From Thermomicrobiales bacterium (GTDB lineage: Bacteria; Chloroflexota; Chloroflexia; Thermomicrobiales; UBA6265): DNA of 64,000 nucleotides. Under the pieces are notes generated by a model. The model had not been told where the DNA came from. It was given only the letters and a program-made list of their open reading frames with translations, and made no database searches. Numbering within the stretch: the stretch's first letter is position 1; every line of letters begins with the position of its first letter. Shown here piece by piece: positions 5,582 to 62,981 of this stretch. The translations under genes were made by a program, and so were the position numbers. The stretch spans positions 10,507-74,506 of the forward strand of contig JBOGUF010000149.1 in assembly GCA_050696075.1 (NCBI GenBank), written 5' to 3'.

Positions 5582-5719
5582 CTAGCTGCTAGCTGCTAGC
5601 AACGAGTCGATCATCGAGACACAGATGCTGACCGCTTTGCCTACCCTTACGCTTGAAGTGCTCATGTGGTTCCCCGGTTCCGTGTGGCTAGCAGCTCGTG
5701 GCTAGCAGCTAGCGGCTAA
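5582..5719. repeat. inverted tandem-heptamer arrays (TAGCTGC units) flanking an ~85-bp spacer
   Basis: Left arm ctagctgctagctgctagc (5582-5600). Right arm ggctagcagctcgtggctagcagctagcggctaa (5686-5719). At least 12 bp are perfectly complementary. The right arm contains the TAG stop of 5716..7236. Confidence 0.8.
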
Positions 5720-7236
5720 TCCCAGGCCAGTTCCGAGCGGCCGCGGGCCCAGAGCCAGAGGCCGAGCCAGGCGATTGTGAGGGCGGCGAGGGCGCCCAGC
5801 ATCATGACGATGCGCCGCTGCCGGCTGTCGAGGTCGGCGAGCAGCGAGCGGGCCTGCGCGGTCATCTCCTCATCGCCGAGGCTGGCGTAGGTCGTGCCGG
5901 CTTGCAGGGCAGCGGCGCGGGCCTCCGGGTAGTCGCCCCAGCGGTGAGAGCGGGCGATCGCCTCGTCAAGCCGCGCGCCAGCGGCGACGCCGTCCGCGGC
6001 GAGGGTTTCGTAGGTGGTAATCAACTCGGTGGGGCGTTGGTCGACCGGCAGCTTCTCGTACTGGGAGACGGCCTGGATGAGGAGTGACGCGGCGCGATCG
6101 TAGGTATGGTGATCGAGCGCCTGTTGCACCTGGGTCATGAGTTGCTCGGCCTGGAGGCCGGTGTCGCATTGGGTCAGGAGGTCTTCGACTTCGGTCAGGC
6201 GTTCAGCGTCGCCGAGTTCGGAGAAGAGCTGCTGCGAGCCTTCAAGCGCCTGCTTGGCGGCGGCGTAGTTGCCCCGCGTCAGCAGGTTGCGCGCCGGTTC
6301 GAGGTCGAATCCGGCGACCAAATTGTCTTTCCACTCGCCGGCGACCCAGCGGGGAATGCTCTCCCGCCACTGCTTCTCAATATCCTCTGCTTCGCGGCCG
6401 TAGGTCTGCTCCAGCGCCTCGCGCCAGTCGGGTGCGGTGCGCAGGGTCGTCAGGAAGGTCTGGAGTTGCGGCAGGCGATACCGCGAGATCAGGAACGCGA
6501 CGACCGCGTAGGACTGACCGGCGATCAGGTTGTCGTCGTCGATGACCGGTGTCGGCCGGTTGAGATCGGACCAGGAGAGGAGGGGGCCGCTTTGGTTGGC
6601 TCCTTGGACGTCGGCGGCGTAGCGTGCGAGGCGCGCATTGACCGGCCGCTCCATATAGAGCGCGATCCCCTCGTCGAAGCCGCGGGGAATGGCGAAGTTG
6701 GAGGCGATGCCGGTCAGGATGTGGGAGACGGCGTGGCGCAGGGCGTTCTCCGCCTCGAGCGGCGTGCGGGCGCCGAAGCGGGAGTAGGCGATCGAGATCT
6801 CGTTCGCCGGCGGGTCGGCGACGGCCTCGACCCCTGGCATCTCGAACCGACCGGTCGCGGCGACGGCGGCGTCGAAGGCGGCCGTGTCGGCGTAGACGTA
6901 GACGGCGATCTTGTCGGCCGGCTGGACGGCAAAGACGACGCTCAACTCGGAGAGGGCGCGCTCGGCCGGATCCTGGTAGGTCCCGACGAAGGCGTCAGCG
7001 GTGAGGTGCTCGTTGGGTTGGACGTAAAAACGGAAGTGCTCGGTTTCGACCAGTGGCCAGTCGGACGGTTGGCCAGCCTCACCGGCTGGACCTGCCTGGT
7101 CAACCTGGCCAGCCAGCGGCGCGGCGGCGGCCGGCATAGTCGGCGCGAAGGTGAGCAGGACCAAGCCGAGCGTGGTGAGGAGCAGGGCACGCCGAAGGAT
7201 GGGGGGGGAGGGGGAGCGGTAAGAAGCGTAACCCAT
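5716..7236 (-). CDS. secreted/membrane-anchored protein with degenerate peptidase-MA-like domain and TPR-like C-terminal region
   Basis: 506-aa ORF with a signal-like N-terminus and a C-terminal TM helix. RHAVSHIL...GFDEGIALYME resembles the peptidase_MA_2 HExxH...EGxA pattern, but the Glu is replaced (HAVSH). Confidence 0.6.
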   Translation of the reverse strand: MGYASYRSPSPPILRRALLLTTLGLVLLTFAPTMPAAAAPLAGQVDQAGPAGEAGQPSDWPLVETEHFRFYVQPNEHLTADAFVGTYQDPAERALSELSVVFAVQPADKIAVYVYADTAAFDAAVAATGRFEMPGVEAVADPPANEISIAYSRFGARTPLEAENALRHAVSHILTGIASNFAIPRGFDEGIALYMERPVNARLARYAADVQGANQSGPLLSWSDLNRPTPVIDDDNLIAGQSYAVVAFLISRYRLPQLQTFLTTLRTAPDWREALEQTYGREAEDIEKQWRESIPRWVAGEWKDNLVAGFDLEPARNLLTRGNYAAAKQALEGSQQLFSELGDAERLTEVEDLLTQCDTGLQAEQLMTQVQQALDHHTYDRAASLLIQAVSQYEKLPVDQRPTELITTYETLAADGVAAGARLDEAIARSHRWGDYPEARAAALQAGTTYASLGDEEMTAQARSLLADLDSRQRRIVMMLGALAALTIAWLGLWLWARGRSELAWD

Positions 7237-9041: not shown

Positions 9042-11468
9042 TCAGATAATCCCCAACTGGAAGCCGAGGGCGACAGCGGCGGCGCGGTTGTCGATGCCGA
9101 GCTTGACGAAGATGTTGGTGACGTGGGTGGTGGCGGTGCGGTGGCTGATGAAGAGCGCCTCGCCGATCTCGCGGCTCGACTTGCCCTCAGCCAGCAGGCG
9201 CAGCACTTCCAACTCGCGGGGCGTGATACCGGCACTCTCGGCGGCGGTGCGGACGGCGGGCGGGGCGGCAGGGTGGCTGGCGACGATCGCCGCGGCGTCG
9301 GCCACCGCCTGTTCGAGGGAGAGGTCGCGGCCGGCGATCCAGGCGGCGCGGAACCCTTCTTCGCCGAGCTGCTGCTTGGCAAGGGCGGTCGCGCGGTCGT
9401 ATTGGGCGCTGATGTAGGGTTGGAGGCTGAGGCCGATTCCCTCGCGGAGGGCGTCGGCGGCGGCGAAGAGGCGGACGGCGACCTCCGCCTGCTGGTGGGC
9501 GGCGGCGATGGCGGCGAGCCCGTGCAGGATCTCGACGACGCCCCACGGGTCGCGGTCGCCTTGTTCCCAGCCAAGGGTAAGGCTCTCGCGAAAGAGTTCG
9601 GCGGCGCGCTCGTCGTCGCCCTGGGCACGGGCGTAGATGGCGAGGTTGAGGAGGGCGGTGCCGATGCCCCAGATGTTGCCGAGGCGGCGCCAGCGGTCGA
9701 GCGCCTCCTGGTAGTGCCCGCCGGCGGCTTTCCAATTGCCGCGCTCGAAGGTTTCGATGCCGAACCGGTTGAGGGCGAACGGCACCCACGCGTCGTCGCC
9801 GAGCTCGTGGAAGAGGGCGAGGGCCGATTCGGCGTGGGAAGCCGCGTCGTCATGGTTGCCACGGGCGCCCTCGGCGAAGCTGAGGGTGAAGAGGCCACGG
9901 GCCCGGATTCGCGTGTCGCCGGCGTCTTCGGCAATGGCGATGGCTTCGCGCGCGAGATGGGCGCCGCGTTCGCCGTCGCCTTGGACGCTGGCGAAGAAGG
10001 CGGAGGCGAGCATCGCCCGCGCGCGGACGATCGGCGACACCTCGTCGGCCGCCGCGAGGAGACGGTCGTACCACCCGCGCCCTTCGGTGAGGTAGCCGCG
10101 CGTTTGCCAGAACCACCAGAGTGCGCGGGCCAGGCGGAGCGCCGTTTCGGGATCGCGTTCGGCGCTCCAGTCGAGCGCGGCGCGGAAGTTGGCGTGCTCC
10201 CATTCGAGCCGGTCGAGCCAGGCGATCTGGTCCAGGCCCCAGACGGCCGGTTCGGCTTCCTCGGCCAAAGCCAGCGCCCAGGCGGCGTGCCGCGCCCACG
10301 CCTCATCCTCTTCACCGGCCGCCACGAGTTGCTCGATCCCGAACTCGCGGATCGTTTGGAGCATCCAGAATCGCGGTTCCCCGCCCCGCTCGTCCTGTCG
10401 CAGCAGGCTCTTGTCGACGAGGGAGGCGAGACCGTCGAGGACGGAGTCATGCGTCGTGAGTCGTGGGTTGTGCGTAGCTCGTTCGTTGTTCCTCACGTCT
10501 CGCGACTCACGGCTCACGACTCGTTCGGCGGCGTCGAGCGAGCAGCCGCGGGCGAAGACGGCGAGGCGGCGGAAGAGGGTTTGCTCCTCCTCGTCGAGCA
10601 AGTCGTAGCTCCAGGCGATGGCGTCGCGCATCGTTTGGAGGCGGACAGGGAGGTCGCGCGGGCCGCCGGTGAGGACGTGCAGGCGGTTGGTGAGGCGAGC
10701 GAGCAGGGCTTGCGGCGAGAGGACTTTGACGCGGGCGGCGGCGAGCTCGATGGCGAGCGGCAGCCCGTCGAGGCGGCGGCAGATCTCGGCGACCGCGGCG
10801 GCGTTCGCCTCGGTGAGGGCGAATTCGGGACGGACGGCGCGGGCACGTTGGAGGAAGAGGGCGACAGCGTGGTTCGCCTCGAGATCGCCAAGCTGTGCGA
10901 TGCGGCCCGCGGGCAGCGGCAGTGGCGCGACCGGGAATTCATGCTCCCCGGTGAGGTGGAGCGAGACCCGGCTGGTAACGAGCGCCTTGACGCCGGGACA
11001 GGCGGCGAGCAGATTGGTGATGACCGGCGCGGCGGACGCGACCTGCTCGAAGCTGTCGATCACCAACAGCAGCGACTGGTGATGGAGCAGACGGTGGAGG
11101 CGCTGATCGACGGGCTCGTCGCCCTCATTGCGCAAATCGAACGCGCGCGCGATAGCGGGGAGGACGAGGGCGGGGTCGCGGATGGAGGCGAGGGGCACGA
11201 ACCAGACACCGTCGGGGAAGGCGTCCCGGAGGTCGGTGGCGGCTTGCAGGGCGAGGCGGGACTTGCCGACGCCGCTCGGTCCGGTCAGGGTGACGAGAGG
11301 GACGTGCTCCTCGGCGAGCAAGGCGCGGACGCCGGCGATCTCCTCGTCGCGGCCGATCAGGGGAGTGCGAGGCGTCGGCAGGCGCGCTCCGCCGCCCCCA
11401 TCGGGGCGGCGGAGCGGGGTCAGCATCGTTGGGCGCGTCTCTGGAGCCGCGGGCGTCGGGGTGGACAA
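9042..11468 (-). CDS. LuxR-family transcriptional regulator with N-terminal AAA/NB-ARC-like ATPase and TPR region
   Basis: 808 aa. Walker A GPSGVGKSRL, TPR-like repeats, and a C-terminal LuxR HTH (TPRELEVLRLLAEGKSSREIGEALFISHRTATTHVTNIFVKLG). Confidence 0.9.
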   Translation of the reverse strand: MSTPTPAAPETRPTMLTPLRRPDGGGGARLPTPRTPLIGRDEEIAGVRALLAEEHVPLVTLTGPSGVGKSRLALQAATDLRDAFPDGVWFVPLASIRDPALVLPAIARAFDLRNEGDEPVDQRLHRLLHHQSLLLVIDSFEQVASAAPVITNLLAACPGVKALVTSRVSLHLTGEHEFPVAPLPLPAGRIAQLGDLEANHAVALFLQRARAVRPEFALTEANAAAVAEICRRLDGLPLAIELAAARVKVLSPQALLARLTNRLHVLTGGPRDLPVRLQTMRDAIAWSYDLLDEEEQTLFRRLAVFARGCSLDAAERVVSRESRDVRNNERATHNPRLTTHDSVLDGLASLVDKSLLRQDERGGEPRFWMLQTIREFGIEQLVAAGEEDEAWARHAAWALALAEEAEPAVWGLDQIAWLDRLEWEHANFRAALDWSAERDPETALRLARALWWFWQTRGYLTEGRGWYDRLLAAADEVSPIVRARAMLASAFFASVQGDGERGAHLAREAIAIAEDAGDTRIRARGLFTLSFAEGARGNHDDAASHAESALALFHELGDDAWVPFALNRFGIETFERGNWKAAGGHYQEALDRWRRLGNIWGIGTALLNLAIYARAQGDDERAAELFRESLTLGWEQGDRDPWGVVEILHGLAAIAAAHQQAEVAVRLFAAADALREGIGLSLQPYISAQYDRATALAKQQLGEEGFRAAWIAGRDLSLEQAVADAAAIVASHPAAPPAVRTAAESAGITPRELEVLRLLAEGKSSREIGEALFISHRTATTHVTNIFVKLGIDNRAAAVALGFQLGII
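10453..10523. repeat. inverted heptamer arrays (GTCGTGA / TCACGNC) embedded in frame in the LuxR CDS
   Basis: Left arm gtcgtgagtcgtgggttgtgcg. Spacer tagctcgttcgttgttc. Right arm ctcacgtctcgcgactcacggctcacgactcg. The element encodes RVVSRESRDVRNNERATHNPRLTTHD. Confidence 0.8.
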
Positions 11469-13277: not shown

Positions 13278-13290
13278 GACTCTTCTCCGG

Positions 13291-13327
13291 AGGCGTTAGG
13301 CGTTAGGCGTTAGGCGTTAGGGCGTGT
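13291..13327. repeat. tandem heptamer array (AGGCGTT x ~5)
   Basis: aggcgttaggcgttaggcgttaggcgttagggcgt read directly. The inverse array is at 14411-14438, and the same heptamer recurs at 62873. Confidence 0.85.
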
Positions 13328-13334
13328 CTGCACC

Positions 13335-13435
13335 CCGTCATGCTGAGGCATCGAAGCATCCCCGCGCGAAGCGCAGCGGCGACTGACGACGATTCGGCTT
13401 CGCCGGGGGATGCTTCCCGGTGGTCAGCATGACGG
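13335..13435. repeat. REP/MITE-like nested palindrome, copy 1
   Basis: ccgtcatgctgaggc...gaagcatccccgcgcg...cgccgggggatgctt...ggtcagcatgacgg. Same family as the copies at 35931 and 58672. Intergenic within the ABC operon. Confidence 0.8.
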
Positions 13436-13460
13436 AGCGTCGCGAACATGCCCTCTCGCT

Positions 13461-14378
13461 TCATCCCTTTAATGCGCCGATTGTGAGGCCGCGTAGGAGG
13501 TAGCGTTGGAGGAGGAGGAAGATGATGATCACCGGGATGGCGGAGATGCTGGCACCGGCCATGAGCGGACCGTAGTCGATCGAGTTCTCGTAGCGGTATT
13601 GGGCGAGGCCGACGGAGAGGTTGCGCATGTCCGACGAGTTCGTGAAGAGGAGCCACCAGAAAAAGCTGTTCCATTCGTAGATGAAGGTGAAGATGGCGAC
13701 GACGGCGAGTCCAGGCTTGGCCAGCGGCAGGATGATCTTCCAGAAGATGCCGAACTCGGAGCAGGCGTCGATGCGGGCGCTGTCGATCAGGGTCGAGGGG
13801 AGCGTCTGCATGAACTGTTTGAGGAGGAACATGTTCCAGACGCTGCCAAGGCCGGGGATGATCAACACCCAGTAGGTGTTGATGAGTCTGAGGTCGGAGA
13901 TGAGCATGAAGAGCGGCACCCAAACGACGACGAAGGGGACCATGATCATGGAGAGGAGCAGCCAGAAGATCTGGCGACCGCCGGGAAAGCGCAGCTTGGC
14001 GAAGGCGTAGGCGGCCATCGCGTTGACGAAGAGGTTGCCGATGGTGACGACAATAGCGACGAGCGCGGTATTGAAGACCCACCGCGGCAGGTCGGACTCC
14101 TCGAAGATCGTGCGGTAATGGTCGAGGCTGATCGGATTAGGAATCCATTGCGGCGGCAGGCTCAGTAGTGAGGTGGATGACTTGACCGACGTGGTGAGCA
14201 TCCAATAGATCGGCAGGAGGGCAATACCGGCCCACGCGACCAAAATAGCGTAGACCAGCACCTTGGCGCCGACGTTCAGCGATCGGCTCGTTGGCAGCCA
14301 TGATGTCCGCTCGCGCGGCCGGGTTGAATCGAGCTCGGCGGCTCCGGCGGCTAATCGCTTCTCGTGGGTGATGCGCAC
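13461..14378 (-). CDS. carbohydrate ABC transporter permease
   Basis: 305 aa with the multi-TM MalG/BPD_transp_1 pattern. GTG start preceded by AGGAGG. Confidence 0.9.
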   Translation of the reverse strand: MRITHEKRLAAGAAELDSTRPRERTSWLPTSRSLNVGAKVLVYAILVAWAGIALLPIYWMLTTSVKSSTSLLSLPPQWIPNPISLDHYRTIFEESDLPRWVFNTALVAIVVTIGNLFVNAMAAYAFAKLRFPGGRQIFWLLLSMIMVPFVVVWVPLFMLISDLRLINTYWVLIIPGLGSVWNMFLLKQFMQTLPSTLIDSARIDACSEFGIFWKIILPLAKPGLAVVAIFTFIYEWNSFFWWLLFTNSSDMRNLSVGLAQYRYENSIDYGPLMAGASISAIPVIIIFLLLQRYLLRGLTIGALKG

Positions 14379-14410
14379 GACCGCGTTCCTCCTGGCTGTA
14401 CCCCGGCACC

Positions 14411-14438
14411 TAACGCCTAACGCCTAACGCCTCCGGCC
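14411..14438. repeat. tandem heptamer array (TAACGCC x 3-4), inverse of the 13291 array
   Basis: taacgcctaacgcctaacgcctccggcc read directly, just downstream of the stop of 14444..15421. Confidence 0.85.
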
Positions 14439-19970: not shown

Positions 19971-20016
19971 GACGATAGGATGCCACGTTCTTGCCTGATG
20001 GCTGATAGCTGACGGC

Positions 20017-22425: not shown

Positions 22426-22532
22426 GCCAGGGTCCTGACGGGTAGTCAGCGTGCGGCGTGGCGCTATGGTTTCAACGATACCGCACTGGTAGCGGTTTTC
22501 GATATGAGCGTGGTGAGACAGGTTGGTGCGGT

Positions 22533-22568
22533 GGTTGGCCAGGTTGGCCAAGTTGGCCAGGTGGACAA
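22533..22568. repeat. tandem nonamer array (GGTTGGCCA x3-4) upstream of the LuxR gene
   Basis: ggttggccaggttggccaagttggccaggtggacaa read directly. Each unit contains the palindrome TGGCCA. Confidence 0.75.
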
Positions 22569-22943
22569 GCTGGAGCAATCGGACCGTGGGGCAGCGGGGG
22601 CCGCCCTGGACTAAAGTCGGGGCTCGGTGACGGCAGTCGGCTGGAAGCCGACTGCCCGCGGGCCGGGTGTGTCGATGATTCGGGCGATGGCACAGGGCAG
22701 CCGCTTGGTTGATCAGGTTGATCGCGGGATCAATCTGGGGTGGGTGAGAGACGACGAAAAGCGCCCTCTATCTATTAAGGCATTGATTTTTGGGGCAAAA
22801 TGGGACTCAGATTTCGATTATTGATCATGTGGTTATGTGTATTGTTGTGTCGTTCGTCGCGCTCGCTGGCTCCGATGCGGCGGGGAAGGACATGAGAGAA
22901 TGGGCGGTTATCGAGTGGTCATCCGTGGCGGTGATACGGGCGA

Positions 22944-23207
22944 ATGGATGGATTGTCCGTGGAGATAGCGAACGAGGAGATGCGGCGGTTGGCGGAGGAA
23001 CTCGCGGCGCTGACGAGCGAGGATGTGACGACGGCGATGACGGAAGCGATTCGAGAACGATTGGAACGCGTACGGTGCGAGCGAGGGAACGGCCTCGCGG
23101 AGCGACTCCTGGCAATCGGCCGAGATTGCGCGGCGCATCTGCCTGAGCCGGGGCGGTCCATCGATCATGGGGAGCTGCTGTACGACGAGCGTGGGTTGCC
23201 GCGGTAA
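22944..23207 (+). CDS. vapB: type II antitoxin VapB-like, orphan (no cognate PIN gene)
   Basis: 87 aa and clearly paralogous to 28412..28666. Shared sequence includes [10 protein letters not shown]...[14 protein letters not shown]. It is followed by no PIN ORF. Confidence 0.75.
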   Translation: MDGLSVEIANEEMRRLAEELAALTSEDVTTAMTEAIRERLERVRCERGNGLAERLLAIGRDCAAHLPEPGRSIDHGELLYDERGLPR

Positions 23208-23221
23208 ATGCGTTCGATTGA

Positions 23222-23542: not shown

Positions 23543-23602
23543 GGTCGTCTCCCCGCCGGTTGCCTAGGGTGATAGCGGCACCGATTTCGACAGAAGCCAA
23601 TC

Positions 23603-23701: not shown

Positions 23702-23774
23702 TGTCCTTTCGTACGTTATAACAGCGTATCAATGCTTACTCGACTTGTCCGTCCGGAAAAATGGGAGAGGTAAC

Positions 23775-49078: not shown

Positions 49079-49515
49079 TTCGCGCGGTCCTCGACATCAA
49101 CGTCCTCCTCTCCGGCATCGTCGGCGTGGAGCGGGGGAGGAGTACCCCGGGTGGGCTCATGCGCGCCTGGCGGGCGCAACGCTTCGAACTCGTCACCTCG
49201 GAGCACATCCGAAGCAGTGTCCAGCGCAACCTGACCGAGGATCCATACTTTTCCCGGCGCCTCCCACCCGAGGAGGTAGCGGCCAATATTGTCTCCTTGG
49301 CCGTCGACGTGACACACGCCATCATTTCCGTCCAGGTGGTTGGGGTTGCAACCCACTCGGAAGACGACTTGGTGCTCTCCGCCGCCGCTAGCGCCGGCAT
49401 CGACTACCTCGTGACCGGCGATCACGGGCTACAAGGCGTCGGATCCTACCAAGGGGTGAAGATCGTCAACCCTCGCGCGTTCCTGGATGTCCTGACAGCG
49501 GAAGTAGCGCCATAA
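49075..49515 (+). CDS. PIN-domain toxin (TIGR00305-like)
   Basis: 146 aa. AVLDINVLLSG and DYLVTGD motifs. Confidence 0.82.
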   Translation: MIRAVLDINVLLSGIVGVERGRSTPGGLMRAWRAQRFELVTSEHIRSSVQRNLTEDPYFSRRLPPEEVAANIVSLAVDVTHAIISVQVVGVATHSEDDLVLSAAASAGIDYLVTGDHGLQGVGSYQGVKIVNPRAFLDVLTAEVAP

Positions 49516-49658
49516 GCCGCTCCGCCCCACGCCGCGAGTCAGCCGACGATCGGGTTGCGGCCAGGTACCGTAATGACGCCGGTAAAACGTCGTCTTAGCT
49601 CGGAACAAGCCACAAGTCCTTTGATTTGACCAGGGCAGGCACGGGAACTTGATGGTCC

Positions 49659-49718
49659 TTACACCGGCAAGAGCCCTTCGACCTTGAAGCGTTCGGCGTT
49701 GAGGATCGACGCCCCGCG
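49659..49718 (-). pseudogene. copy of the asd 3-prime end (fragment)
   Basis: Reverse translation gives RGASILNAERFKVEGLLPV* with its own TAA stop. Confidence 0.8.
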
Positions 49719-49780
49719 AACTGGGATGGATTTGGACGCCTTCGTGCTAATCTATCCATTGGCACCAGTTGGAGGAGCGC

Positions 49781-50113
49781 ATGAGGGCAACAGCGGCATA
49801 CAGTGCAACGGACTATCTGTTTCGCGACGAGGGAGCGGTCCGCGCCTATCTGGACGAGCATCCGGAGGTCATTCCGGCACTGGTCGAAGCCAGCCGACTG
49901 TTGCCGCACTCCTTTGGTATGAACGCTGCCATCGTGCTCGACGTATTGACCGATCCGGAGGAACCAGACGCTACGAACCTTTTTGCGCTCATACGGACCT
50001 CATTGGAGCCCAACGAGGCGCTCCCGTTGCTCGACGACTTCAACGAGCGTTGGTGGCGCCCCGTCTCCGCGACCTTCGACGCCGATGTCCATTTCGGCCT
50101 CGACTATGTCTGA
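49781..50113 (+). CDS. hypothetical protein, putative partner of the HEPN-like protein
   Basis: The ATG at 49781 follows GGAGGAG. 110 aa. 8-nt overlap with the downstream gene, consistent with a two-gene module. Confidence 0.6.
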   Translation: MRATAAYSATDYLFRDEGAVRAYLDEHPEVIPALVEASRLLPHSFGMNAAIVLDVLTDPEEPDATNLFALIRTSLEPNEALPLLDDFNERWWRPVSATFDADVHFGLDYV

Positions 50114-50501
50114 GCCGTTCGAATGGCGGCATCTCCTTGACCTTGCTCTGGAACTCGCACAGCACGCAGATGACGAGACTCGACTGCGAACGGCGGTCAG
50201 TCGCGCCTATGACGCCGCTTATTGCAGCGCGGCAGAATATGTGCTGGCGAATACGCCGAACCTGAAACGCACAGACCTCACACATGACGCTGTTTGGCAT
50301 GTGTTCCGGACTCCAAGCAACCGCGATCGCTGGACGATCTTCGACGACGGGATGAATCTCAAGCATCACCGTATCGACGCGGACTATTGGCGACCGATGC
50401 AGGCCCGTCGACCGGCATCGATTATGCGCGACGCGCTTTATCGATCCGCGCGGATCTTGAGATTGCTCGAAAGGCTGGAACCTGAGTCATCAGACCGGTA
50501 G
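50106..50501 (+). CDS. HEPN domain-like protein (putative toxin)
   Basis: 131 aa. SRAYDAAYCSAAEYVLAN..THDAVWHVF and NLKHHRIDADY resemble the HEPN (PF05168-type) helices and R..ADY motif. Its 3-prime end overlaps the convergent asd stop by 12 nt. Confidence 0.6.
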   Translation: MSEPFEWRHLLDLALELAQHADDETRLRTAVSRAYDAAYCSAAEYVLANTPNLKRTDLTHDAVWHVFRTPSNRDRWTIFDDGMNLKHHRIDADYWRPMQARRPASIMRDALYRSARILRLLERLEPESSDR

Positions 50502-51574: not shown

Positions 51575-51604
51575 GGGTCAGGGGTCGGGAGTCAGGAGTC
51601 AGGG
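51575..51604. repeat. tandem heptamer array (GRGTCRG x4), left arm of the four-helix-bundle cassette
   Basis: gggtcaggggtcgggagtcaggagtcaggga. It contains the TGA stop (tca at 51599-51601) of the four-helix-bundle gene. Confidence 0.85.
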
Positions 51605-51973
51605 ACGACGTTCGAGCTTACGCTCAAGAGCGTTTCTTAGAGAAGCGAGTTGTTTGCCTAAGGGCACGACGATTTCCTTCACTTCCTCGAATTGTGCGGC
51701 CTTCAGATACCCAAATCGGACCGCTAATTCACATTGCGTTTCAACCTCCGCCAATGAACTACGAGCAATAGAGATGGCTTGCAAATACTCCTTCGTCGAT
51801 TCCCTGGTGTGTCCCTCCGCGACGTTGGATGGAATTGAAACGGCAGCTCGGCGCAGTTGATTTGCCAGACCATACAGTTCGTGACGAGGAAATGCTTCGG
51901 TTTGCTTGTGGATCATTTCCGCGAGGTCCATCCCTAGTTTCCACACCCGAAGATCCCGAAAGCTCTCAATCAC
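51599..51973 (-). CDS. four helix bundle protein (TIGR02436 / 23S rRNA intervening-sequence protein family)
   Basis: GTG start at 51973 after GAGAGGAG. FRDLRVWKLGMDLAEMIHKQTEAFPRHELYGLANQLRRAAVSIPSNVAEG is the family signature. The upstream part of the track ORF is a shadow. Confidence 0.85.
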   Translation of the reverse strand: MIESFRDLRVWKLGMDLAEMIHKQTEAFPRHELYGLANQLRRAAVSIPSNVAEGHTRESTKEYLQAISIARSSLAEVETQCELAVRFGYLKAAQFEEVKEIVVPLGKQLASLRNALERKLERRP

Positions 51974-51997
51974 CTTCGCTCCTCTCGTCGCCTTTGC

Positions 51998-52026
51998 CCC
52001 TGACTCCTGACTCCTGACCCCTGTCA
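51998..52026. repeat. tandem heptamer array (CCTGACY x4), right arm, inverse of 51575-51604
   Basis: cctgactcctgactcctgacccctgtca. Its reverse complement matches the left arm with 1-2 mismatches over ~24 bp. It contains the TGA stop of aspartate kinase (52024-52026). Confidence 0.85.
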
Positions 52027-53475
52027 CCCAACTCGTAATGATTCGGCCAGCATGTCGGAGCGGCGGGGGCGGCGGCCACGGGCGCTGGCGGTTTGGGGGC
52101 GGATGAAGGCGGTGTGGATCGCTACGACGGCGCGGTCGGCGGCGCGGGCCGGGACGGCGGCGACGAGGGCCGCGTTCGACATCTGCTGACTCGCGGCCAG
52201 GACGGGAACGCCGGCGCGGTGGAGGACGCCGAGCATGCGGGCCAGGGCAGCGGGTTTTTCGGCCGCGCCCTGGCCGATCGCGGCGACGACGGCGACCTCC
52301 TCGGTGCAACCGACTTCGGCCTCGAAGTCGCGGGCGCCAAGGACTTCCTCGATCCGGCACTGGGTGCGGCCACAGCCGCCGCCGGTGGCGGCGTCGACCA
52401 GGTAGGTCATGCGGCGGCGGGAGGAGGCTTGGGCGGCGAGCACGACTTCGATCCGGTCTTCGTGCAGCGCGCCGAAGACGGCCGAGGCGGCGCCGGAGAG
52501 GTCTTCCAGCTCCGGGACGTCGACGGTCAGAAGCAGCAGACCGTGCATAGCGGTGACCGCCTTGACTTGGTCGCCGGCCGCCTCGCGAGTGACGAGCGTG
52601 CCCGGCTCGGTGGGGGCGACGGTGGAAAGGATGCGGACCGGAATGCCGCGGGCGACGGCGGGACGGATGGTGCGGGGGTGGAGGACCTTGGCGCCGAAGT
52701 GGGCCAGCTCTTGGGCCTCGTCGAAGCTGACGCTCGGCACGACGCGGGCGTCGGGCACCTTGCGGGGGTCGGCGGAGAGGACGCCGGGCACGTCGGTCCA
52801 GATATGGATCTCGTCGGCGTCGAGGGCCGCGCCGAGCAGCGTTGCGCTGTAGTCGGAACCTCCGCGGCCGAGGGTGGTCGTCGTCCCGTCCGGGGCGAAG
52901 CCGATGAAGCCGGTCATGACGACGGTGAGCCCCTGGTCGAGGAGGGGGCGGACGACGGCGTTCGCCTGCTCGCGGGTGCGGACACGGTCGGGGCGAGCCG
53001 CGCCGAAGCGGTCGTCAGTGGCGATGACGCGGTCGGCGAAGAGGTGGACGGCCGGCGTGCCGCGCGATCTGAGCGTGGCGGCCATGAGGACGCTGAGTGC
53101 CTTTTCACCGGTGGCGCCGATGCGGTCCGAGTCGCGGTGGGAAAGGTCGCCGGCTTCGGCGACGTCGTTGAGGGCGTCGTCAAGCGTGGCGTGGAGTTGG
53201 TCGAGCTCGACGAGGGCGGCGAGGCGCTCCGCTTCGTCCTCGATGCCGTCTGCAATGCCGAGGTGCTTTTCGCGGATAGTGGCGGCGATGGCAGCGGCCT
53301 GGTCGCGCTCGCCGGTCGCGGCGGCGCGGGCAGCGTCGAGAAGCAGGTTAGTGACGCCGCTGGCGGCGGAGACAACCGCGGCGCGGGGTTGGGGTTGGGC
53401 CTCGGTAATCGCGGCGGCATCCCGGACGCGGTCGCGATTGCCGACCGAGGTGCCGCCGAATTTGAGGACGATCAT
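52024..53475 (-). CDS. ask: aspartate kinase
   Basis: 483 aa. N-terminal MIVLKFGGTSVG, a kinase core, and C-terminal ACT-like regions. Confidence 0.92.
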   Translation of the reverse strand: MIVLKFGGTSVGNRDRVRDAAAITEAQPQPRAAVVSAASGVTNLLLDAARAAATGERDQAAAIAATIREKHLGIADGIEDEAERLAALVELDQLHATLDDALNDVAEAGDLSHRDSDRIGATGEKALSVLMAATLRSRGTPAVHLFADRVIATDDRFGAARPDRVRTREQANAVVRPLLDQGLTVVMTGFIGFAPDGTTTTLGRGGSDYSATLLGAALDADEIHIWTDVPGVLSADPRKVPDARVVPSVSFDEAQELAHFGAKVLHPRTIRPAVARGIPVRILSTVAPTEPGTLVTREAAGDQVKAVTAMHGLLLLTVDVPELEDLSGAASAVFGALHEDRIEVVLAAQASSRRRMTYLVDAATGGGCGRTQCRIEEVLGARDFEAEVGCTEEVAVVAAIGQGAAEKPAALARMLGVLHRAGVPVLAASQQMSNAALVAAVPARAADRAVVAIHTAFIRPQTASARGRRPRRSDMLAESLRVG

Positions 53476-53480
53476 GACGT

Positions 53481-53589
53481 AGCTCCTAGCCGCTAGCTGC
53501 TGGCCTCTAGCTTCTTGCGTGCCATCTCCACGTCGCTGTGGACACCCGCTAACTCAAGGCTAGGAGCTAACGGCTAATGGCTAGTTGCT
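53481..53589. repeat. imperfect inverted heptamer arrays (AGCNNCT-type) between attenuator and ask start
   Basis: Left arm agctcctagccgctagctgctggcctctagcttcttg. Right arm caaggctaggagctaacggctaatggctagttgct. 53480-53491 and 53558-53569 are 12 bp perfectly complementary and include the ask Shine-Dalgarno sequence. Confidence 0.75.
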
Positions 53590-53590
53590 G

Positions 53591-53623
53591 ACAAAACAAG
53601 AGCGGGAGCGTTGCCGCTCCCGC
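53591..53623 (-). terminator. intrinsic terminator (attenuator) downstream of the leader peptide
   Basis: On the minus strand: GCGGGAGCG-GCAA-CGCTCCCGC followed by TCTTGTTTTGT. Confidence 0.75.
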
Positions 53624-53659
53624 CTGCCGGTTCGTTTGGATGTTCGCCGGGCCTTCGCC

Positions 53660-53776
53660 CTACTCGCTACGCACCCTCCGACCGACAGGCATGGGCTTGG
53701 TAATCATGATGCCGGTGATGGCAATCATGGTCTCAGTAGTGGTGCCGGTCGTGATAGCGCGCACAATCTCACTCAT
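53660..53776 (-). CDS. putative Thr/Ile/Met-rich leader peptide of the ask-asd operon
   Basis: Manual translation gives [38 protein letters not shown]. That is 8 Thr, 6 Ile and 3 internal Met in 38 codons. It lies upstream of the terminator and ask. Confidence 0.65.
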
Positions 53777-53923
53777 GGCAGCACTATAAACGGTGAAGCG
53801 TTGGAACGCAAGAGGTTACGGCCCCCGGCCGGTCGATTGCTTGGCGATGCATTTTCGGCATGGAATGTGCTGCTAGCGTCGGGGTATCTGGAACCATGGA
53901 CCGATAACAAGGGAGGGAAGGTG

Positions 53924-55141: not shown

Positions 55142-55153
55142 GGCGGCAAGAGC

Positions 55154-55188
55154 GGGAGGCGGAAGGCGGAAGGCGGAAGGCGGGAGAC
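55154..55188. repeat. tandem heptamer array (GGAAGGC x ~5), solitary
   Basis: gggaggcggaaggcggaaggcggaaggcgggagac starts 13 nt after the galM stop. It is followed by the hairpin gccgggttgaaaacccggc. Confidence 0.8.
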
Positions 55189-55273
55189 GGCCAGGCGGGG
55201 TCATTCCGGCGTTGCGTGACGCCGGGTTGAAAACCCGGCGATCAGATCAAGTACGCCGTGCTGGAGCGCAGCG

Positions 55274-57019: not shown

Positions 57020-57128
57020 GCGGTGCTCCTTTGCCGATCAGGATCGGTGTGACCGGCGCAGGATACCCGCGTCGTTTCTGCCGGCCAAGACCCCTTGCCG
57101 AAACCTCGATCAGTTCCTATTCTCTGTT

Positions 57129-57165
<37 letters not shown>

Positions 57166-60573: not shown

Positions 60574-62895
60574 GTGGGAAGAGGGATGGAGAGCGGGACA
60601 GAACGCATTGGTTACGTAGGGCGGTCGATCCGGCGATTGGGGGACGAGCGGCTATTGCGTGGGGCGGGTCGTTTTGTGGACGACGTGCGGATTGCCGGCA
60701 CGCTCCACGTCGCGTTTGCGCGCGGTCCAGTGGCGCATGGGGTGATCCGGTGGATTGACGCGACGGCGGCGGCGCGTGTGCCCGGCGTCGTGGGTGTCTT
60801 CACCGGGGAGGAGGTCGCGGGGTGGGTCGAACCGGTGGGTGGCGGGGCGGATCTATTGCCGGGGCGTGAGTTGCGGCGGTATCCGCTCGCGGTCGCACGG
60901 GTGCGGTTCGTGGGGGATGCGGTCGCGGCAGTGGTGGCGGACGATCCGGCCGTTGCCCGCGACGCCGCGGACCGGATCGAAGTCGCCTACGACGAGTTGC
61001 CGGTGGTGGTCGACGCCGAGGCGGCGCTGGCCGCGGACGCGCCGCTGGTCTATCCGGGATGGGGGAGCAACCTTGCCTTCCGCTGGCAGGTCGAAGCGGG
61101 CGACGTCGAGGACGCCTTCGCCCGGGCAGAGCGGATTGTTTCGATCCGGGTAGTCAACCAGCGGGTCTACGCCGCTTTCCTCGAGCCGCGCGGGGTGCTG
61201 GCCAACCCGGAGCCGGGCGGTGATCTGACCGTTTGGGCCTCGACCCAAGGGCCGCACGGGTTGCGAACGGCGATTGCCGGCAGCCTGCGCGTTCCCGAGC
61301 ACCGGTTGCGGGTGATCGCGCCGGACGTGGGCGGCGCGTTCGGCAGCAAGGGCGGGACTTACCCTGAGTACCTGCTGATTCCCGCGCTGGCGATGCGGCT
61401 GGGGCGTCCGGTCAAGTGGATCGAGAGCCGGACGGAGAGCTTGCTGGCGACCAGCCACGGCCGGGACCAGGTACAGCGGTTGCGGGCGGCGGTGGCGGCG
61501 GACGGCGAGATTTTGGGGGTCGACATCGAGATCGTCGCCAACCTGGGGGCGTACAACGCGGCGATGACCGGGCGGATGACGGGGTTGATGTCGGCCGGGC
61601 CGTACCGATTCCGCAATCTGCGCACGACGGTCCTGGGGGCGATGACGAATGTGACGCCGCTCGGCTCCTACCGCGGCGCGGGCCGGCCGGAGGGGGCCTA
61701 CATGCTGGAGCGGCTGATCGAAGCGGTGGCGCGTGAGTTGGAGCTTGACTCGGCAGCGGTTCGTCGCCGCAACTTCATCCCGCCCGCGGCCTTCCCGTAC
61801 CAGTCGCCAACCGGCGCGATCTACGACAGCGGCGACTACGACACGACGTTGACCGAAGCCCTGAGCCGGCTGGACTACGACGCCTTCCGAATGGAGCTAG
61901 CGGAGGCGCGGCGTGCCGGGCGGTTGGTCGGCGTCGGCATCGGCGTCTATTGCGAGTATGCGGGGCCGGGTTGGGACACGGCGACGGTGCGGGTCAGCCC
62001 AAGTGGGGCGGTGACGGTGACGTCCGGAACCTCGCCGCACGGGCAGGGACAGGAGACGAGTTTGGCGCAGGTGGTCGCCGATCAGTTGGGGGTGACGCCG
62101 GATGACGTAGCGGTGCGGACCGGTGACACCGCGTTGACGCCGCAAGGGCTGGGCACCTTTGGCAGTCGCGGCACGTCGGTCGGCGGCTCGGCGATCCTGC
62201 TGGCGGCGCGGGAGGTCCACCAGAAGGCGCGACGGATTGCCGCGCACCTGCTGGAAGCGGCGGACGAGGACGTCGTCTTTGCCAATGGGCGCGTCGAGGT
62301 GCGGGGCGTGCCTAATCGGGGGATCGCGTTTGCCGACATCGCCCGCGCCGCGCACGCCTTCAACGGACCACCGGGCGGCGAGGAGCCGGGGCTGGAAGCG
62401 ACGCGGACCTTTCTGCCGTCGAACAGGACGACCCCGTATGGGGTCCACCTGGCGGTGGTCGAGGTCGACCGCGAAACGGGCGAGGTAGCGTTGCAACGCT
62501 ACCTGGCTGTCGACGACTGCGGCCCGCTGATCAACCCGCAATTGGTGGAGGGGCAGGTAGTGGGCGGGCTGGCGCAGGGGGTCGGCCAGGCGCTGTACGA
62601 GGCGATTGTCTTCGACGGTGCGGGGCAGCCGCTGACGGGCTCGTTCCTCGACTACGCCGTGCCGCGGGCGACGCAACTGCCGACCTTCGAGACCGCCCAC
62701 ACCGTGACGCCAAGCCCGTTCAACCCGCTCGGCGTCAAGGGGGTGGGCGAGGCCGGCACGACGGGGGCGCCGCCGGCGGTGGTCAACGCGGTGCTGGACG
62801 CGCTGACCCCGCTCGGCGTGCGGCATCTGGATATGCCGCTGACGCCGGAGCGGGTGTGGCGGGCGATGAACGAGGCGTTAGGCGTTAGGCGTTAG
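60574..62895 (+). CDS. xanthine dehydrogenase/aldehyde oxidase family molybdopterin-binding subunit (CoxL-like)
   Basis: 773 aa. An N-terminal a/b-hammerhead-like region (GRFVDD), GGAFGSK and GQGQET motifs. The start may be the ATG at 60586. The C-terminus (ALGVRR*) is encoded by the heptamer array. Confidence 0.9.
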   Translation: MGRGMESGTERIGYVGRSIRRLGDERLLRGAGRFVDDVRIAGTLHVAFARGPVAHGVIRWIDATAAARVPGVVGVFTGEEVAGWVEPVGGGADLLPGRELRRYPLAVARVRFVGDAVAAVVADDPAVARDAADRIEVAYDELPVVVDAEAALAADAPLVYPGWGSNLAFRWQVEAGDVEDAFARAERIVSIRVVNQRVYAAFLEPRGVLANPEPGGDLTVWASTQGPHGLRTAIAGSLRVPEHRLRVIAPDVGGAFGSKGGTYPEYLLIPALAMRLGRPVKWIESRTESLLATSHGRDQVQRLRAAVAADGEILGVDIEIVANLGAYNAAMTGRMTGLMSAGPYRFRNLRTTVLGAMTNVTPLGSYRGAGRPEGAYMLERLIEAVARELELDSAAVRRRNFIPPAAFPYQSPTGAIYDSGDYDTTLTEALSRLDYDAFRMELAEARRAGRLVGVGIGVYCEYAGPGWDTATVRVSPSGAVTVTSGTSPHGQGQETSLAQVVADQLGVTPDDVAVRTGDTALTPQGLGTFGSRGTSVGGSAILLAAREVHQKARRIAAHLLEAADEDVVFANGRVEVRGVPNRGIAFADIARAAHAFNGPPGGEEPGLEATRTFLPSNRTTPYGVHLAVVEVDRETGEVALQRYLAVDDCGPLINPQLVEGQVVGGLAQGVGQALYEAIVFDGAGQPLTGSFLDYAVPRATQLPTFETAHTVTPSPFNPLGVKGVGEAGTTGAPPAVVNAVLDALTPLGVRHLDMPLTPERVWRAMNEALGVRR

Positions 62896-62981
62896 GCGTT
62901 AGCACTTCCGTCGTGCCGGGCCAGATGCCTCGACGAACTCCGACGCTCGGCATGACGATGCTGACGCCTGACGCCTAACGG
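62873..62981. repeat. inverted heptamer arrays (AGGCGTT x4 / CTGACGC-CTAACGG) around a diverged REP-like core
   Basis: Left arm aggcgttaggcgttaggcgttaggcgtt. Core with cgtcgtgccggg...ctcggcatgacg. Right arm ctgacgcctgacgcctaacgg. It lies between two convergent genes. Confidence 0.8.

Follow-up and report, generated by a model that had tools for sequence, protein, structure and literature searches.

What are the arrays of tandem heptamers, many of them in inverted pairs, that lie along the 64,000-nt stretch of DNA analysed here (the window), which is part of a Thermomicrobiales (Chloroflexota) genome? Tandem Repeats Finder and direct reading of the sequence placed period-7 arrays at every coordinate of the original prediction. 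Each listed with its partner, these arrays lie at 5582-5600/5684-5718, 10444-10465/10492-10522, 13291-13321/14409-14432, 21448-21483/21501-21520, 51577-51603/51999-52023, 53480-53512/about 53556-53590, and 62873-62902/62961-62984. With periods 4 to 15 compared at a threshold of at least 2.7 copies, the window holds nine perfect arrays of period 7 and only zero to one of each other period. In 100 order-2 Markov simulations, chance yielded on average 0.03 perfect period-7 arrays and never more than 1. Within the window, therefore, period 7 is over-represented among tandem repeats as had been proposed, and the expectation of paired inverted arrays at at least six loci was likewise borne out, since six loci have inverted pairs that give stems of 20-37 bp. 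Of 17 inverted pairs, 16 have their G-rich arm on the 5' side. No T-run follows the long stems, which are thus not canonical intrinsic terminators. The suggestion that each locus has its own unit stands in part: several units differ between loci, but GGCGTTA is present at three window sites, GGCGGAA at 21.4k and 55.1k and also in another genome (L005), and GGRGTCA-type units reappear in other genomes.

One of the pairs, between ask and asd, encloses a gene:

51996-52025, minus strand: 5' arm of GGGGTCA/GGAGTCA units (mRNA sense), starting at the ask stop codon (TGA, 52026-52024)
51599-51973, minus strand: gene for a four-helix-bundle protein (PF05635/TIGR02436), between the two arms
51577-51604, minus strand: 3' arm of TGACTCC/TGACCCC units (mRNA sense), ending about 10 nt before the asd ribosome-binding site

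Folding predicts a terminal stem of about 32 bp between the arms. The enclosed protein (124 aa, with a GTG start preceded by AGGAG) matches TIGR02436 with 112 bits (cutoff 24) and has an identical copy in an NCBI Thermomicrobiales MAG; the TGA stop of its gene is part of the first 3'-arm unit, and the gene is the single one of PF05635/TIGR02436 type in the window. Its GC content is 0.51, versus 0.67-0.72 in the neighbouring genes, and the GC content of the cassette gene was below that of the host locus in all eight genomes checked. The ask-asd spacer is 472 nt long in the window versus 36-60 nt in L003, L004, L008, and L009, and the four-helix-bundle cassette is restricted to the closest relatives. 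Among these, L170 has an intact cassette whose unit counts differ from those in the window, and L001 has a spacer of 389 nt in which the four-helix-bundle gene has an internal deletion. Based on the low GC content, the restriction to the closest relatives and the decay already under way in one of them, we conclude that the 51577-52025 hairpin is an inserted cassette in the ask-asd mRNA, built like a 23S rRNA intervening sequence.

The link between four-helix-bundle genes and heptamer arms holds across genomes. The four-helix-bundle loci that were fetched come from Thermomicrobiales, Acidobacteriota, NC10, and one unplaced genome; all of them lie co-oriented between operon genes, and every one is preceded by a G-rich heptamer array and followed by its complement. 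In at least three other phyla, inverted heptamer arms surround cassettes homologous to this one, each cassette having a unit of its own, and GGGGNNN repeats form the arms of four-helix-bundle loci in other genomes. Homologs on viral contigs have a near-perfect period-7 array in a flank in 20 of 32 cases, with units that vary from cassette to cassette; the same 32 homologs have 1, 0, 1, and 0 arrays of periods 5, 6, 8, and 9, respectively.

The remaining paired arrays carry no gene, and within this genome these hairpins have no sequence in common with the four-helix-bundle cassette:

53476-53598, minus strand: hairpin in the ask 5' leader, predicted by folding, with GCTAGNN-type arms at about 53556-53590 and 53480-53512
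5577-5718, minus strand: hairpin with GCTAGCN-type arms (5718-5684 and 5603-5577) in the spacer from a peptidase-MA gene to the next gene
14406-14434, minus strand: GGCGTTA array of 3.4 copies (mRNA sense) in the spacer of two ABC permease genes, the 5' partner of the next array
[quoted passage not shown]
62871-62983, plus strand: hairpin between convergent genes, with arms of GGCGTTA (4.3 copies, 62871-62904) and CTGACGC/CTAACGG (62960-62983)
10438-10528, minus strand: in-frame hairpin in LuxR-type STAND ATPase gene A (9042-11468), in the linker from the NB-ARC domain to the 'LVDKSLL' helix
21442-21526, minus strand: in-frame hairpin in STAND paralog B (20017-22578), at the equivalent protein position

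Several of these hairpins abut translation signals. In the peptidase-MA spacer, where the loop is about 80 nt, the TAG stop of the upstream gene (5718-5716) lies in the first unit and the downstream Shine-Dalgarno sequence GCTAGAGG is carried by the last. The ask leader hairpin (-51.7 kcal/mol, z = -3.3) has the ask Shine-Dalgarno sequence GCTAGGAG in the last unit of its 3' arm. Between the convergent genes, the 5' arm contains the final seven codons and the TAG stop (62893-62895) of a molybdopterin-enzyme gene, and the 62866-62990 region folds at -73.6 kcal/mol (z = -7.5). The ABC transporter arms are predicted to form a 30-bp duplex that includes flanking CCGGAG/CTCCGG (-73.8 kcal/mol); since the partners are 1.1 kb apart, this pairing may fail to form during transcription. 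Stems are weak or periodically mismatched at 5576-5722 (z = -1.7) and in the leader of L001.

The two STAND hairpins are translated. Their arms are of GAGTCGT type (10522-10492) and ACGACTC type (10465-10444) in gene A (z = -2.7), and of GGCGGAA and TTCCGCC type in paralog B (z = -3.2). Among 50 STAND homologs the linker has a modal length of 29 aa. Heptamer hairpins of differing sequence occupy this site in A and B of the window and in L014, L119, and L093, while one in L127 is only possible; that of L119 has a perfect stem of 37 bp in an organism of 50% GC. We regard this linker of the STAND ATPase family as a permissive site for long stems that are translated in frame.

Comparison of orthologous spacers, which had been put forward as a check, showed that unit number varies between close relatives (e.g., L170) and that the units themselves turn over. 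The ask-asd spacer unit is GGAGTCA in the window and L001, GGCAGTA in L002, the 8-mer ACGGACAG in L005, CCGCCAG in L006, AGTGCCG in L010, AGGGAAG in L011, and GGGGAC(G) in L014; in the remaining relatives this spacer is without any array. The ask leader has distinct heptamer hairpins in the window, in L001 and in L002/L005, and L010 and L014 have a leader array for which no partner array was detectable. In most of these cases the Shine-Dalgarno sequence forms the end of the 3' arm. Hairpins at orthologous sites have a period of 7, sometimes 6 or 8, which speaks for generic slippage over a dedicated heptamer mechanism. The enclosed four-helix-bundle gene, the in-frame place of two hairpins and the turnover of units at orthologous sites had all been overlooked in the original prediction.

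Further arrays, the first four of which are unpaired and had not been listed before, are the following:

55142-55198, plus strand: unpaired GGCGGAA array of 5.7 copies, beginning right after the TAG stop of an aldose-epimerase gene
57127-57165, plus strand: unpaired CGGTACG array of 4.9 copies, in front of an MFS transporter gene in the intergenic region of a divergent gene pair
39647-39675, minus strand: unpaired GTTCGGC array of 3.3 copies (sense) that supplies the C-terminal codons of ORF 39646-40230 (GC3 of 0.81)
19992-20012, no strand assigned: short, imperfect, unpaired TGGCTGA-type array in the spacer that follows STAND gene B
28196-28221, minus strand: short run of degenerate GGRGTCA-type units that follows the stop codon of a partial gene copy
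29085-29103: second copy of the degenerate GGRGTCA-type units

Folding predicted no stem for the four unpaired arrays, and a hairpin function consequently cannot explain every array. The last two entries had been described as CCTGAMY arrays following two thyX-tail copies. The arrays exist, as short and degenerate GGRGTCA-type units, but the ThyX identity is unsupported: the two copies, both downstream of an ECF sigma factor gene, match neither ThyX nor any other family.

We consider it probable that the paired arrays are the arms of long stem-loops, one enclosing the four-helix-bundle gene and the others sitting at places that tolerate a stem, i.e., operon spacers (from the stop of one gene to the ribosome-binding site of the next), a 5' leader, the end of a gene in a convergent pair, and the STAND linker. 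At the DNA level, replication slippage favouring 7-base units would grow and turn over the arms, and either selection for pairing or templated correction from one arm to the other may keep them complementary; together these processes could make the units differ from locus to locus and from species to species. In the RNA, the near-perfect duplexes of 20-37 bp might be sites for RNase III or other processing, might act as barriers to 3' exonucleases, or might sequester a Shine-Dalgarno sequence until opened by the upstream ribosome. These putative roles are modelled on REP elements in operons and on intervening-sequence stems in rRNA.

It is conceivable, though we think it unlikely, that the hairpins are functionless debris of a 7-base slippage bias and quasi-palindrome template switching, kept where harmless. 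Many bacteria have an excess of heptamer simple-sequence repeats, put down to polymerase slippage (Mrazek 2007, cited in PMC4679880 and PMC4692102), and the period 6 and 8 variants at one orthologous site, the unpaired arrays, the many relatives that are array-free at corresponding sites and the differing unit numbers of close relatives would all fit this history. However, pure drift does not readily explain why arrays span exactly from stop codon to Shine-Dalgarno sequence, why the G-rich arm is so consistently 5', why one protein linker repeatedly holds hairpins in unrelated organisms or why the association with a four-helix-bundle gene spans phyla. We are somewhat more doubtful that these are mobile miniature hairpins (MITE- or REP-like) copied in trans by a transposase or by four-helix-bundle-linked machinery, the gene-less ones being non-autonomous derivatives of the gene-carrying cassette. 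That cassette is clearly inserted and of foreign GC content, distant STAND homologs have hairpins inserted at one common site, orthologous spacers differ in the presence of arrays, and units are shared (GGCGTTA within the window, GGCGGAA with L005). Moreover, an arm of STAND copy A (10496-10518) has a 23-nt identity with the ask-asd spacer of L010, the longest match once orthologous genes and recurring array units are set aside. Yet the hairpins are without a conserved core, target-site duplication or adjacent transposase, units are highly diverse inside one genome, and 64 kb hold just one four-helix-bundle gene. The ask-leader units also resemble the native ribosome-binding-site region (GCTAGGAG compared with GACTAGGAG in L004), which suggests growth in place.

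Two other readings concern what the repeats themselves might encode. DNA-level switches, either contingency loci in which slippage would frameshift STAND genes or alter the leader, or G-quadruplexes or cruciforms regulating transcription, seem to us very improbable. A one-unit change in the in-frame arrays would indeed shift the reading frame, G-rich heptamer repeats formed G-quadruplexes in vitro (PMC4692102), and four-helix-bundle loci of other genomes have GGGGNNN arms; the arrays here, however, are short (3-5 units) and often imperfect, so that slippage rates should be low, and those of the window are mostly without runs of at least three G. Least credible, and hardly to be entertained, is the original prediction that the arrays were selected as three-frame stop modules guaranteeing termination at gene ends. 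The underlying arithmetic is correct, as 7 is coprime to 3 and a stop triplet in the unit appears in all three frames, and in 10 of 18 arms at least one strand has a stop in every frame. Four genes had been said to end inside arrays; the stops at 5716, 51599, and 62893 do so, but that at 52024 lies in a degenerate unit at the edge of the array following ask, which has no sense-strand stop. Five of the 18 arms (21448, 21500, 39647, 55142, and 57127) are free of stop triplets on both strands, the 39647-39675 array encodes a C-terminus, and two hairpins are translated in frame, the sole unit junction in copy A able to give an in-frame TGA reading CGA. Depending on context, stop content is thus selected against or tolerated. 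The property is a by-product that any inserted repeat with a stop triplet acquires automatically; the stop content of the unit has likewise been remarked on for TAACTGA repeats (PMC4679880).

Precedents for heptamer repeats and for paired inverted arrays exist in cyanobacterial STRR, Xanthomonas GGGAATC repeats and the Coxiella intervening sequence, while the link to a gene cassette and the recurrent in-frame insertion appear to be undescribed in the literature searched. Cyanobacterial STRR (units CCCCAGT, TTGGTCA, and CAACAGT) are similarly tandem heptanucleotides scattered through intergenic DNA, and are said, in work by Vioque from 1997, to lengthen helix P12 of RNase P RNA; they belong to another phylum and comprise a small genome-wide set of units, in contrast to the locus-to-locus change seen here. 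REP elements shield upstream mRNA from 3' exonucleases (malE-malF). The REP/BIME of enterobacteria and REPINs (PMC3116915) are likewise stem-loops in intercistronic operon spacers, including those of ABC transporter operons, but REPs have one conserved palindrome per genome and need a RAYT transposase, whereas here a conserved sequence is absent, tandem repeats make up the arms and a non-exhaustive search showed no RAYT. TAACTGA repeats of Beggiatoaceae, Cyanobacteria, and Bacteroidetes, for which a translational role was proposed, also lie just ahead of start codons and overlap the ends of the preceding genes, but have a single unit and are nearly all direct (inverted in 1 of 170; PMC4679880).

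The view that paired inverted heptamer arrays were uncharacterised proved too strong given the precedents in Xanthomonas (PMC4692102) and Coxiella (PMC4990558). Xanthomonas genomes have 70-75 paired convergent GGGAATC arrays each (Rehm et al., 2015, PMC4692102); as here, these are intergenic in a high-GC genome, lie mostly between co-oriented genes, and differ in length and sequence among related species. They have a single dominant unit, unlike the many units here, and that paper stresses G-quadruplexes rather than stems and reports neither an enclosed gene nor in-frame coding insertions. The closest counterparts of the ask-asd cassette are the 23S rRNA intervening sequences of Leptospira and Coxiella (S23p/four-helix-bundle protein). 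In that of Coxiella, RNase III cuts a terminal stem of 28 bp; strain-variable GACAGAT tandem heptamers lie in the stem region, at the 5' end of the element, and the cut falls at the first repeat (PMC4990558). Intervening sequences sit in helix 25 or 45 of 23S rRNA rather than in an mRNA operon spacer, and in the ask-asd cassette both arms consist wholly of heptamer units. In both settings, the terminal inverted repeats around a PF05635-family gene pair over about 30 bp, and the enclosed gene is prone to decay, as in L001 here and in strain AuQ01 of Coxiella.

Tandem Repeats Finder listed period-7 arrays, with the sequences described, at all of the coordinates named by the original prediction, and a scan across periods bore out the excess of heptamers: at period 7 the window has nine perfect arrays with 2.7 copies or more, compared to none or one for each other period from 4 to 15. 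In 100 order-2 Markov simulations of the window, the mean number of perfect period-7 arrays was 0.03 and the maximum was 1. Reverse-complement pairs of arrays occur at six loci, giving seven pairs if those at 13.3k/14.4k and 62.9k, which have a common unit, are counted apart:

5577-5603 / 5684-5718, inverted pair
10444-10465 / 10492-10522, inverted pair inside STAND ATPase gene copy A (9042-11468)
13289-13323 / 14406-14434, inverted pair
21448-21486 / 21500-21521, inverted pair inside STAND ATPase gene copy B (20017-22578)
51577-51604 / 51996-52025, inverted pair around the four-helix-bundle gene (51599-51973) in the spacer between ask and asd, both minus strand
53480-53512 / 53556-53590, inverted pair in the 5' leader of ask
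62871-62904 / 62960-62983, inverted pair

Four further arrays that were absent from the original prediction (19992-20012, 39647-39675, 55142-55198, and 57127-57165) are unpaired, and none formed a stem on RNA folding. The units in the window include GGCGTTA, GGAGTCA, GCTAGCN, and GGCGGAA, and most have no runs of three or more G. The proposal that each locus has its own unit holds in that many units differ by locus, but GGCGTTA is present three times in the window and GGCGGAA at both 21.4k and 55.1k. Scanned for Rfam families and tRNAs over its full length, the window showed no known RNA family or tRNA overlapping an array.

The setting of the arrays, in a window of about 67% GC, was determined from Pfam annotation of the neighboring genes, 12 array-adjacent genes being put through Pfam. 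Arrays lie in co-oriented spacers between a peptidase-MA gene and the next gene, among two ABC permease genes and an ATPase gene (an exact look-up of the ABC ATPase protein returned no record), and between ask and asd. Another pair is situated between convergent genes for a molybdopterin enzyme and a cupredoxin, one array is directly 3' of the stop codon of an aldose epimerase gene, and two pairs are inside large LuxR-type STAND ATPase genes with the domain order NB-ARC, TPR, GerE. Thermomicrobiales MAGs (Chloroflexota) contain the nearest relatives of the ask gene (52024-53475, minus strand), with amino-acid identities that reach 93%. At 55200-55250, past the unpaired GGCGGAA array, the stretch separating the epimerase gene from the topoisomerase IB gene has two ordinary GC-rich hairpins, ccggcgttgcgtgacgccgg and ccgggttgaaaacccgg.

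A lower-GC island (22800-33000; 0.53-0.63) contains a toxin-antitoxin pair and the only transposase gene found, which is of the IS256/Mutator family (26011-27285; Pfam E = 1e-114). The 3' end of a minus-strand ORF (29109-29537) is present in two directly repeated copies that are about 81% identical, at 28170-28360 and 29060-29250. Upstream of this ORF is an ECF sigma factor gene (29600-30196). As no family matches the ORF, an earlier thyX label for the duplicated tails was dropped. The VapB-like (Rv0623 family) and PIN-domain genes of the toxin-antitoxin pair (28412-29058) are between the two tail copies, as if inserted with the duplication.

The paired arrays are the arms of stems. Folded as RNA, 62866-62990 has a predicted energy of -73.6 kcal/mol (z = -7.5), the ask-leader hairpin has z = -3.3, and the two hairpins inside genes have z = -3.2 and -2.7, with the stem at 5576-5722 being weaker (z = -1.7). 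In the minimum-free-energy fold the 51.6k/52.0k arms form a terminal stem of about 32 bp that closes a 390-nt loop. The arms at 13.3k/14.4k form a perfect 30-bp duplex, reaching past the repeats into CCGGAG/CTCCGG; this inverted repeat (13289-14434) encloses an ordinary ABC permease gene and would loop a whole cistron out of the mRNA. No T-run directly follows the stems at 62983, 51577, 5577, or 13289, and a role as canonical intrinsic (Rho-independent) terminators is therefore ruled out.

One stem, at 51577-52025, encloses a gene, as an intervening sequence does. The DNA between its GGAGTCA arms (390 nt, 51% GC) encodes a 124-aa protein behind a good ribosome-binding site, and this protein is a member of the four-helix-bundle family TIGR02436 (112.4 bits, cutoff 24), with PF05635, "23S_rRNA_IVP," present in 120/120 homologs among the matches listed. 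The PF05635 family was first found within 23S rRNA intervening sequences, and we know of no function assigned since the 1990s to the four-helix-bundle proteins of these sequences. Identity with Avd, the DGR accessory protein, was rejected (NF033474 DivGenRetAVD, 31.2 bits, cutoff 80), and no reverse transcriptase was present among the 12 array-adjacent genes put through Pfam. The junctions are tight: the ask stop codon adjoins the 5' arm, the TGA of the four-helix-bundle gene falls in the unit with which the 3' arm begins, and this arm ends about 10 nt upstream of the asd ribosome-binding site.

The spacers between ask and asd in 22 further Thermomicrobiales loci measure 36-180 nt and contain no four-helix-bundle gene; among the relatives only the two closest, L001 and L170, have the cassette. 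In L001 (93% identity) it has lost about 34 codons internally, while in L170 it is intact and differs in its unit counts. The cassette is thus a recent, compositionally foreign insertion, and in one lineage it is already decaying. A tblastn search of the window with the protein and its 120 homologs found no second copy or remnant, including in the loops of the other hairpins, so a recent origin of the gene-less hairpins from this cassette is unsupported. Elsewhere beside asd, a segment of about 1 kb (49425-50489, GC about 0.59) is extra in this genome, since in L001 the sequence downstream of asd runs straight into the counterpart of 49424-48692.

The same architecture was found around homologs whose surrounding DNA we fetched from Thermomicrobiales (L081, L083, L084, and L171), Acidobacteriota (L085 and L086), NC10 (L088), and an unplaced genome (L089). 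In all of these loci the four-helix-bundle gene is co-oriented between two operon genes, and its GC is below that of the host locus. The flanking genes encode the following:

ABC permease and MR_MLE enzyme
MoxR and DUF5682
response regulator and next gene
ABC permease and ATPase
E1-alpha and E1-beta

Each of these cassettes has a G-rich heptamer array upstream and a complementary C-rich array downstream, with units including GGGGTCG, GGGGCTA, GAGGATA (10 copies), GGGGTTA, and GGTGCTG. Among 32 homologs on contigs from viral collections, 20 have a near-perfect period-7 array (at least 12/14 matches across three units) in one or both flanks, compared to 1, 0, 1, and 0 for periods 5, 6, 8, and 9. 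These units again vary by cassette (CAGTGGT, GGGTGTA, GTTGGCT, GGTAAGA, AGAGTGG, AACGTTC, and others), and one cassette has 8-mers. A heptamer of its own for each copy is a general property of such cassettes, and we consider the connection between four-helix-bundle cassettes and inverted heptamer arms to be well-supported and apparently undescribed.

Spacers without the gene often still hold a hairpin with tandem-repeat arms; in more distant relatives the ask-asd spacer has ordinary hairpins or none.

Repeat units in the ask-asd spacers of relatives
L002: GGCAGTA
L005: ACGGACAG (8-mer, x3.5)
L006: CCGCCAG (x4.3, without partner)
L010: AGTGCCG (x4.3, with partner)
L011: AGGGAAG-type
L014: GGGGAC(G)

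Similarly, long hairpins are present in the ask leaders of the window, L001, and L002/L005, their units being related yet different (GCTAGNN, AGCTGNN/ATCAGCT, and AGCTTCG), and in all four the Shine-Dalgarno sequence is inside the last unit of the 3' arm. The leaders of L010 (CTGANNG) and L014 (GCCGAAC) have a heptamer array beside the start codon for which no complementary partner was seen, and the predicted folds close no such stem. L004, which has no array, reads GACTAGGAG at the Shine-Dalgarno point, so the repeated leader unit seems to be native sequence that has been amplified. Thus the hairpin sequence turns over while the architecture persists. The GGCGGAA unit of 21.4k and 55.1k is also present in L005, and an exact 23-nt identity (cgtctcgcgactcacggctcacg) links window 10496-10518, in an arm of STAND copy A, with L010 11505-11527, in the ask-asd hairpin loop; this is the longest match apart from orthologous genes and recurring array units. 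Arrays may have arisen by growth in place or by copying between sites. As synteny past ask-asd is not conserved in 25 related loci, there is no orthologous comparison for the 55.1k, 57.1k, and 62.9k arrays.

Upstream of ask, 53595-53777 (minus strand) encodes a 38-codon peptide rich in Thr, Ile, Met, and Lys, which are end products of the aspartate pathway. It is followed by a GC-rich hairpin with a T-run (ccggcaggcgggagcg...cgctcccgc, then ttgtttt), a terminator-like structure at 53634-53595 that is separate from the heptamer stems. The peptide core and T-run hairpin are kept upstream of ask in L003, L007, L009, L022, and L024, and the region looks like a leader-peptide transcription attenuator of the ask-asd operon. 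The heptamer hairpin stands between this putative attenuator and the ask start codon.

The hairpins of STAND copies A and B, paralogs with 45% identity, are at one protein position, between "AAE.V" and "VLD.L.SLVDKSL." In 50 metagenome homologs the linker between these motifs has a mode of 29 residues (range 24-31); longer linkers that contain a heptamer hairpin are as follows.

Heptamer-hairpin linkers in STAND ATPases
Window copy A: GAGTCGT
Window copy B: GGCGGAA
L014: GGACTGA x2 / TCAGTCC x4.4
L119 (organism of 50% GC): CAGTGGT x5, 37-bp perfect stem, -86 kcal/mol
L093: longer linker with hairpin
L127: perhaps the same

All of these hairpins are open in frame. In copy A, TGA occurs at successive unit junctions in frames 1, 2, (0), and 1, with the frame-0 junction being CGA. 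The hairpins are therefore translated and under selection for openness. As they recur at this linker, it is either permissive or a hot spot.

The arms also have a polarity. The G-rich arm is the 5' arm in 16 of the 17 inverted heptamer pairs from the window and all fetched loci, or 13/14 independent loci from several phyla including Bacteroidota and Gemmatimonadota; three STAND hairpins and most viral-contig cassettes are also G-rich first. Since the property is identical on both strands, it is uninformative on gene orientation. We speculate that a C-rich unpaired 5' arm would meet Rho before its partner was transcribed. Telomerase-like end addition was rejected as the source of the G-rich arm, the observed 5' polarity being opposite to telomeric.

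How these structures act is best considered together with what else they might be. We expect that the 20-37 bp duplexes act in RNA, where they may be RNase III substrates or barriers to 3' exonucleases, like REP elements. The stems in operon spacers span the stop codon to the ribosome-binding site, and could mask the Shine-Dalgarno sequence of the downstream gene, which would become accessible once the upstream ribosome had melted the 5' arm. The original prediction had instead regarded the arrays as three-frame stop modules. Because 7 and 3 are coprime, a unit with a stop triplet does give stops in all three frames, and 10 of 18 arms have these on at least one strand, but five have no stop on either strand, the array after ask has none in the sense direction, and the array at 39647-39675 codes for a C-terminus. 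With the in-frame hairpins, these exceptions make the stop module a side effect rather than what the arrays are for; it explains the harmless overlap of stop-containing arrays with gene ends. The original observation is thus confirmed and its interpretation right in part. A role as DNA-level switches is a further, improbable rival. As DNA, the 30-bp inverted repeat at 13289-14434 could allow inversion of that segment.

A purely neutral origin by slippage has a precedent in the proposal of slippage for over-represented heptamer repeats, as relayed by two citing papers (Mrazek, 2007, via PMC4679880 and PMC4692102); set against it are the exact reach of arrays from stop codon to Shine-Dalgarno sequence, the polarity, the recurrence of hairpins at one protein linker, and the cross-phylum association with four-helix-bundle genes. 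We suggest that slippage favoring 7-base units, combined with selection for pairing or arm-to-arm templated repair, would produce locus-specific units. Descent from MITE-like mobile elements would fit the 23-nt identity between unrelated sites, but, unlike MITE or REP-REPIN elements, the window loci share nothing past the repeated unit; no duplicated flanks (target-site duplications) were seen on reading the loci, and no transposase adjoins an array. A bolder and rather improbable alternative is that heptamer-armed stems and four-helix-bundle (Avd-like) genes together make up a single, widespread class of selfish cassettes akin to intervening sequences. Such cassettes would insert at transcribed, tolerant sites (rRNA helices, operon spacers, leaders, and protein linkers), be neutralized at the RNA level through cleavage of their own long stem, and leave gene-less "solo" hairpins, whose arms would then evolve in concert to give a different unit per locus and a G-rich 5' arm. 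If true, STRR, the Xanthomonas GGGAATC repeats, and the window arrays would be footprints of one element family, with S23p/four-helix-bundle proteins as its mobility or maintenance factor.

Few long simple repeats are as common in bacteria as heptamer repeats, and the window links these with four-helix-bundle proteins outside rRNA. Operon spacers in several phyla show the order G-rich arm, four-helix-bundle gene, complementary arm, each cassette with units of its own. Gene-less hairpins at orthologous sites show complete sequence turnover, and some hairpins are in frame within proteins. Putative RNase III processing of mRNA spacers, putative translational coupling via the stems that span stop codon to ribosome-binding site, and putative binding of heptamer RNA or DNA by the four-helix-bundle protein are testable handles. 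On the practical side, gene callers will misplace starts and stops in heptamer arrays, and 30-bp perfect inverted repeats are difficult for assemblers and read mappers.

In the searchable literature, the Coxiella paper discussed below is the only one found to combine four-helix-bundle or S23p proteins with heptamers. Searches there did not find a general link between four-helix-bundle cassettes in mRNA spacers and inverted, cassette-specific heptamer arms, recurrent in-frame heptamer hairpins at one protein linker, unit turnover at orthologous Thermomicrobiales sites, or a G-rich-arm-first rule. Like the cyanobacterial STRR, the window arrays are tandem heptanucleotide units, but the host's kin are Thermomicrobiales MAGs rather than heterocystous cyanobacteria, and the units are not those of STRR1-3. 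Vioque reportedly found in 1997 that cyanobacterial STRR heptamers lengthen helix P12 of RNase P RNA, and Elhai is said to have described small dispersed repeats in Nostoc in 2008. Repeats of TAACTGA have been described at starts and ends of genes (PMC4679880). Xanthomonas has paired convergent heptamer arrays (PMC4692102), and those of the window are likewise paired, close, convergent, and mainly intergenic (six loci), but their units are many and there is no dominant GGGAATC/GGGANTN unit with quadruplex-capable G-tracts.

The closest likeness is to the 23S rRNA intervening sequence, with which the ask-asd element shares terminal inverted repeats and a predicted long stem around a PF05635 gene. 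Unlike that sequence, which is found in helix 25 or 45, it is situated between two coding genes, and Rfam identified no rRNA or other RNA family in the window. The Coxiella intervening sequence has an S23p gene, a 28-bp terminal stem that is cut by RNase III, and three strain-variable GACAGAT heptamers at its 5' end, the first of which is where the enzyme cuts (PMC4990558). Based on this matching build, the window element may be regarded, by analogy, as an mRNA-borne counterpart of the rRNA intervening sequence.
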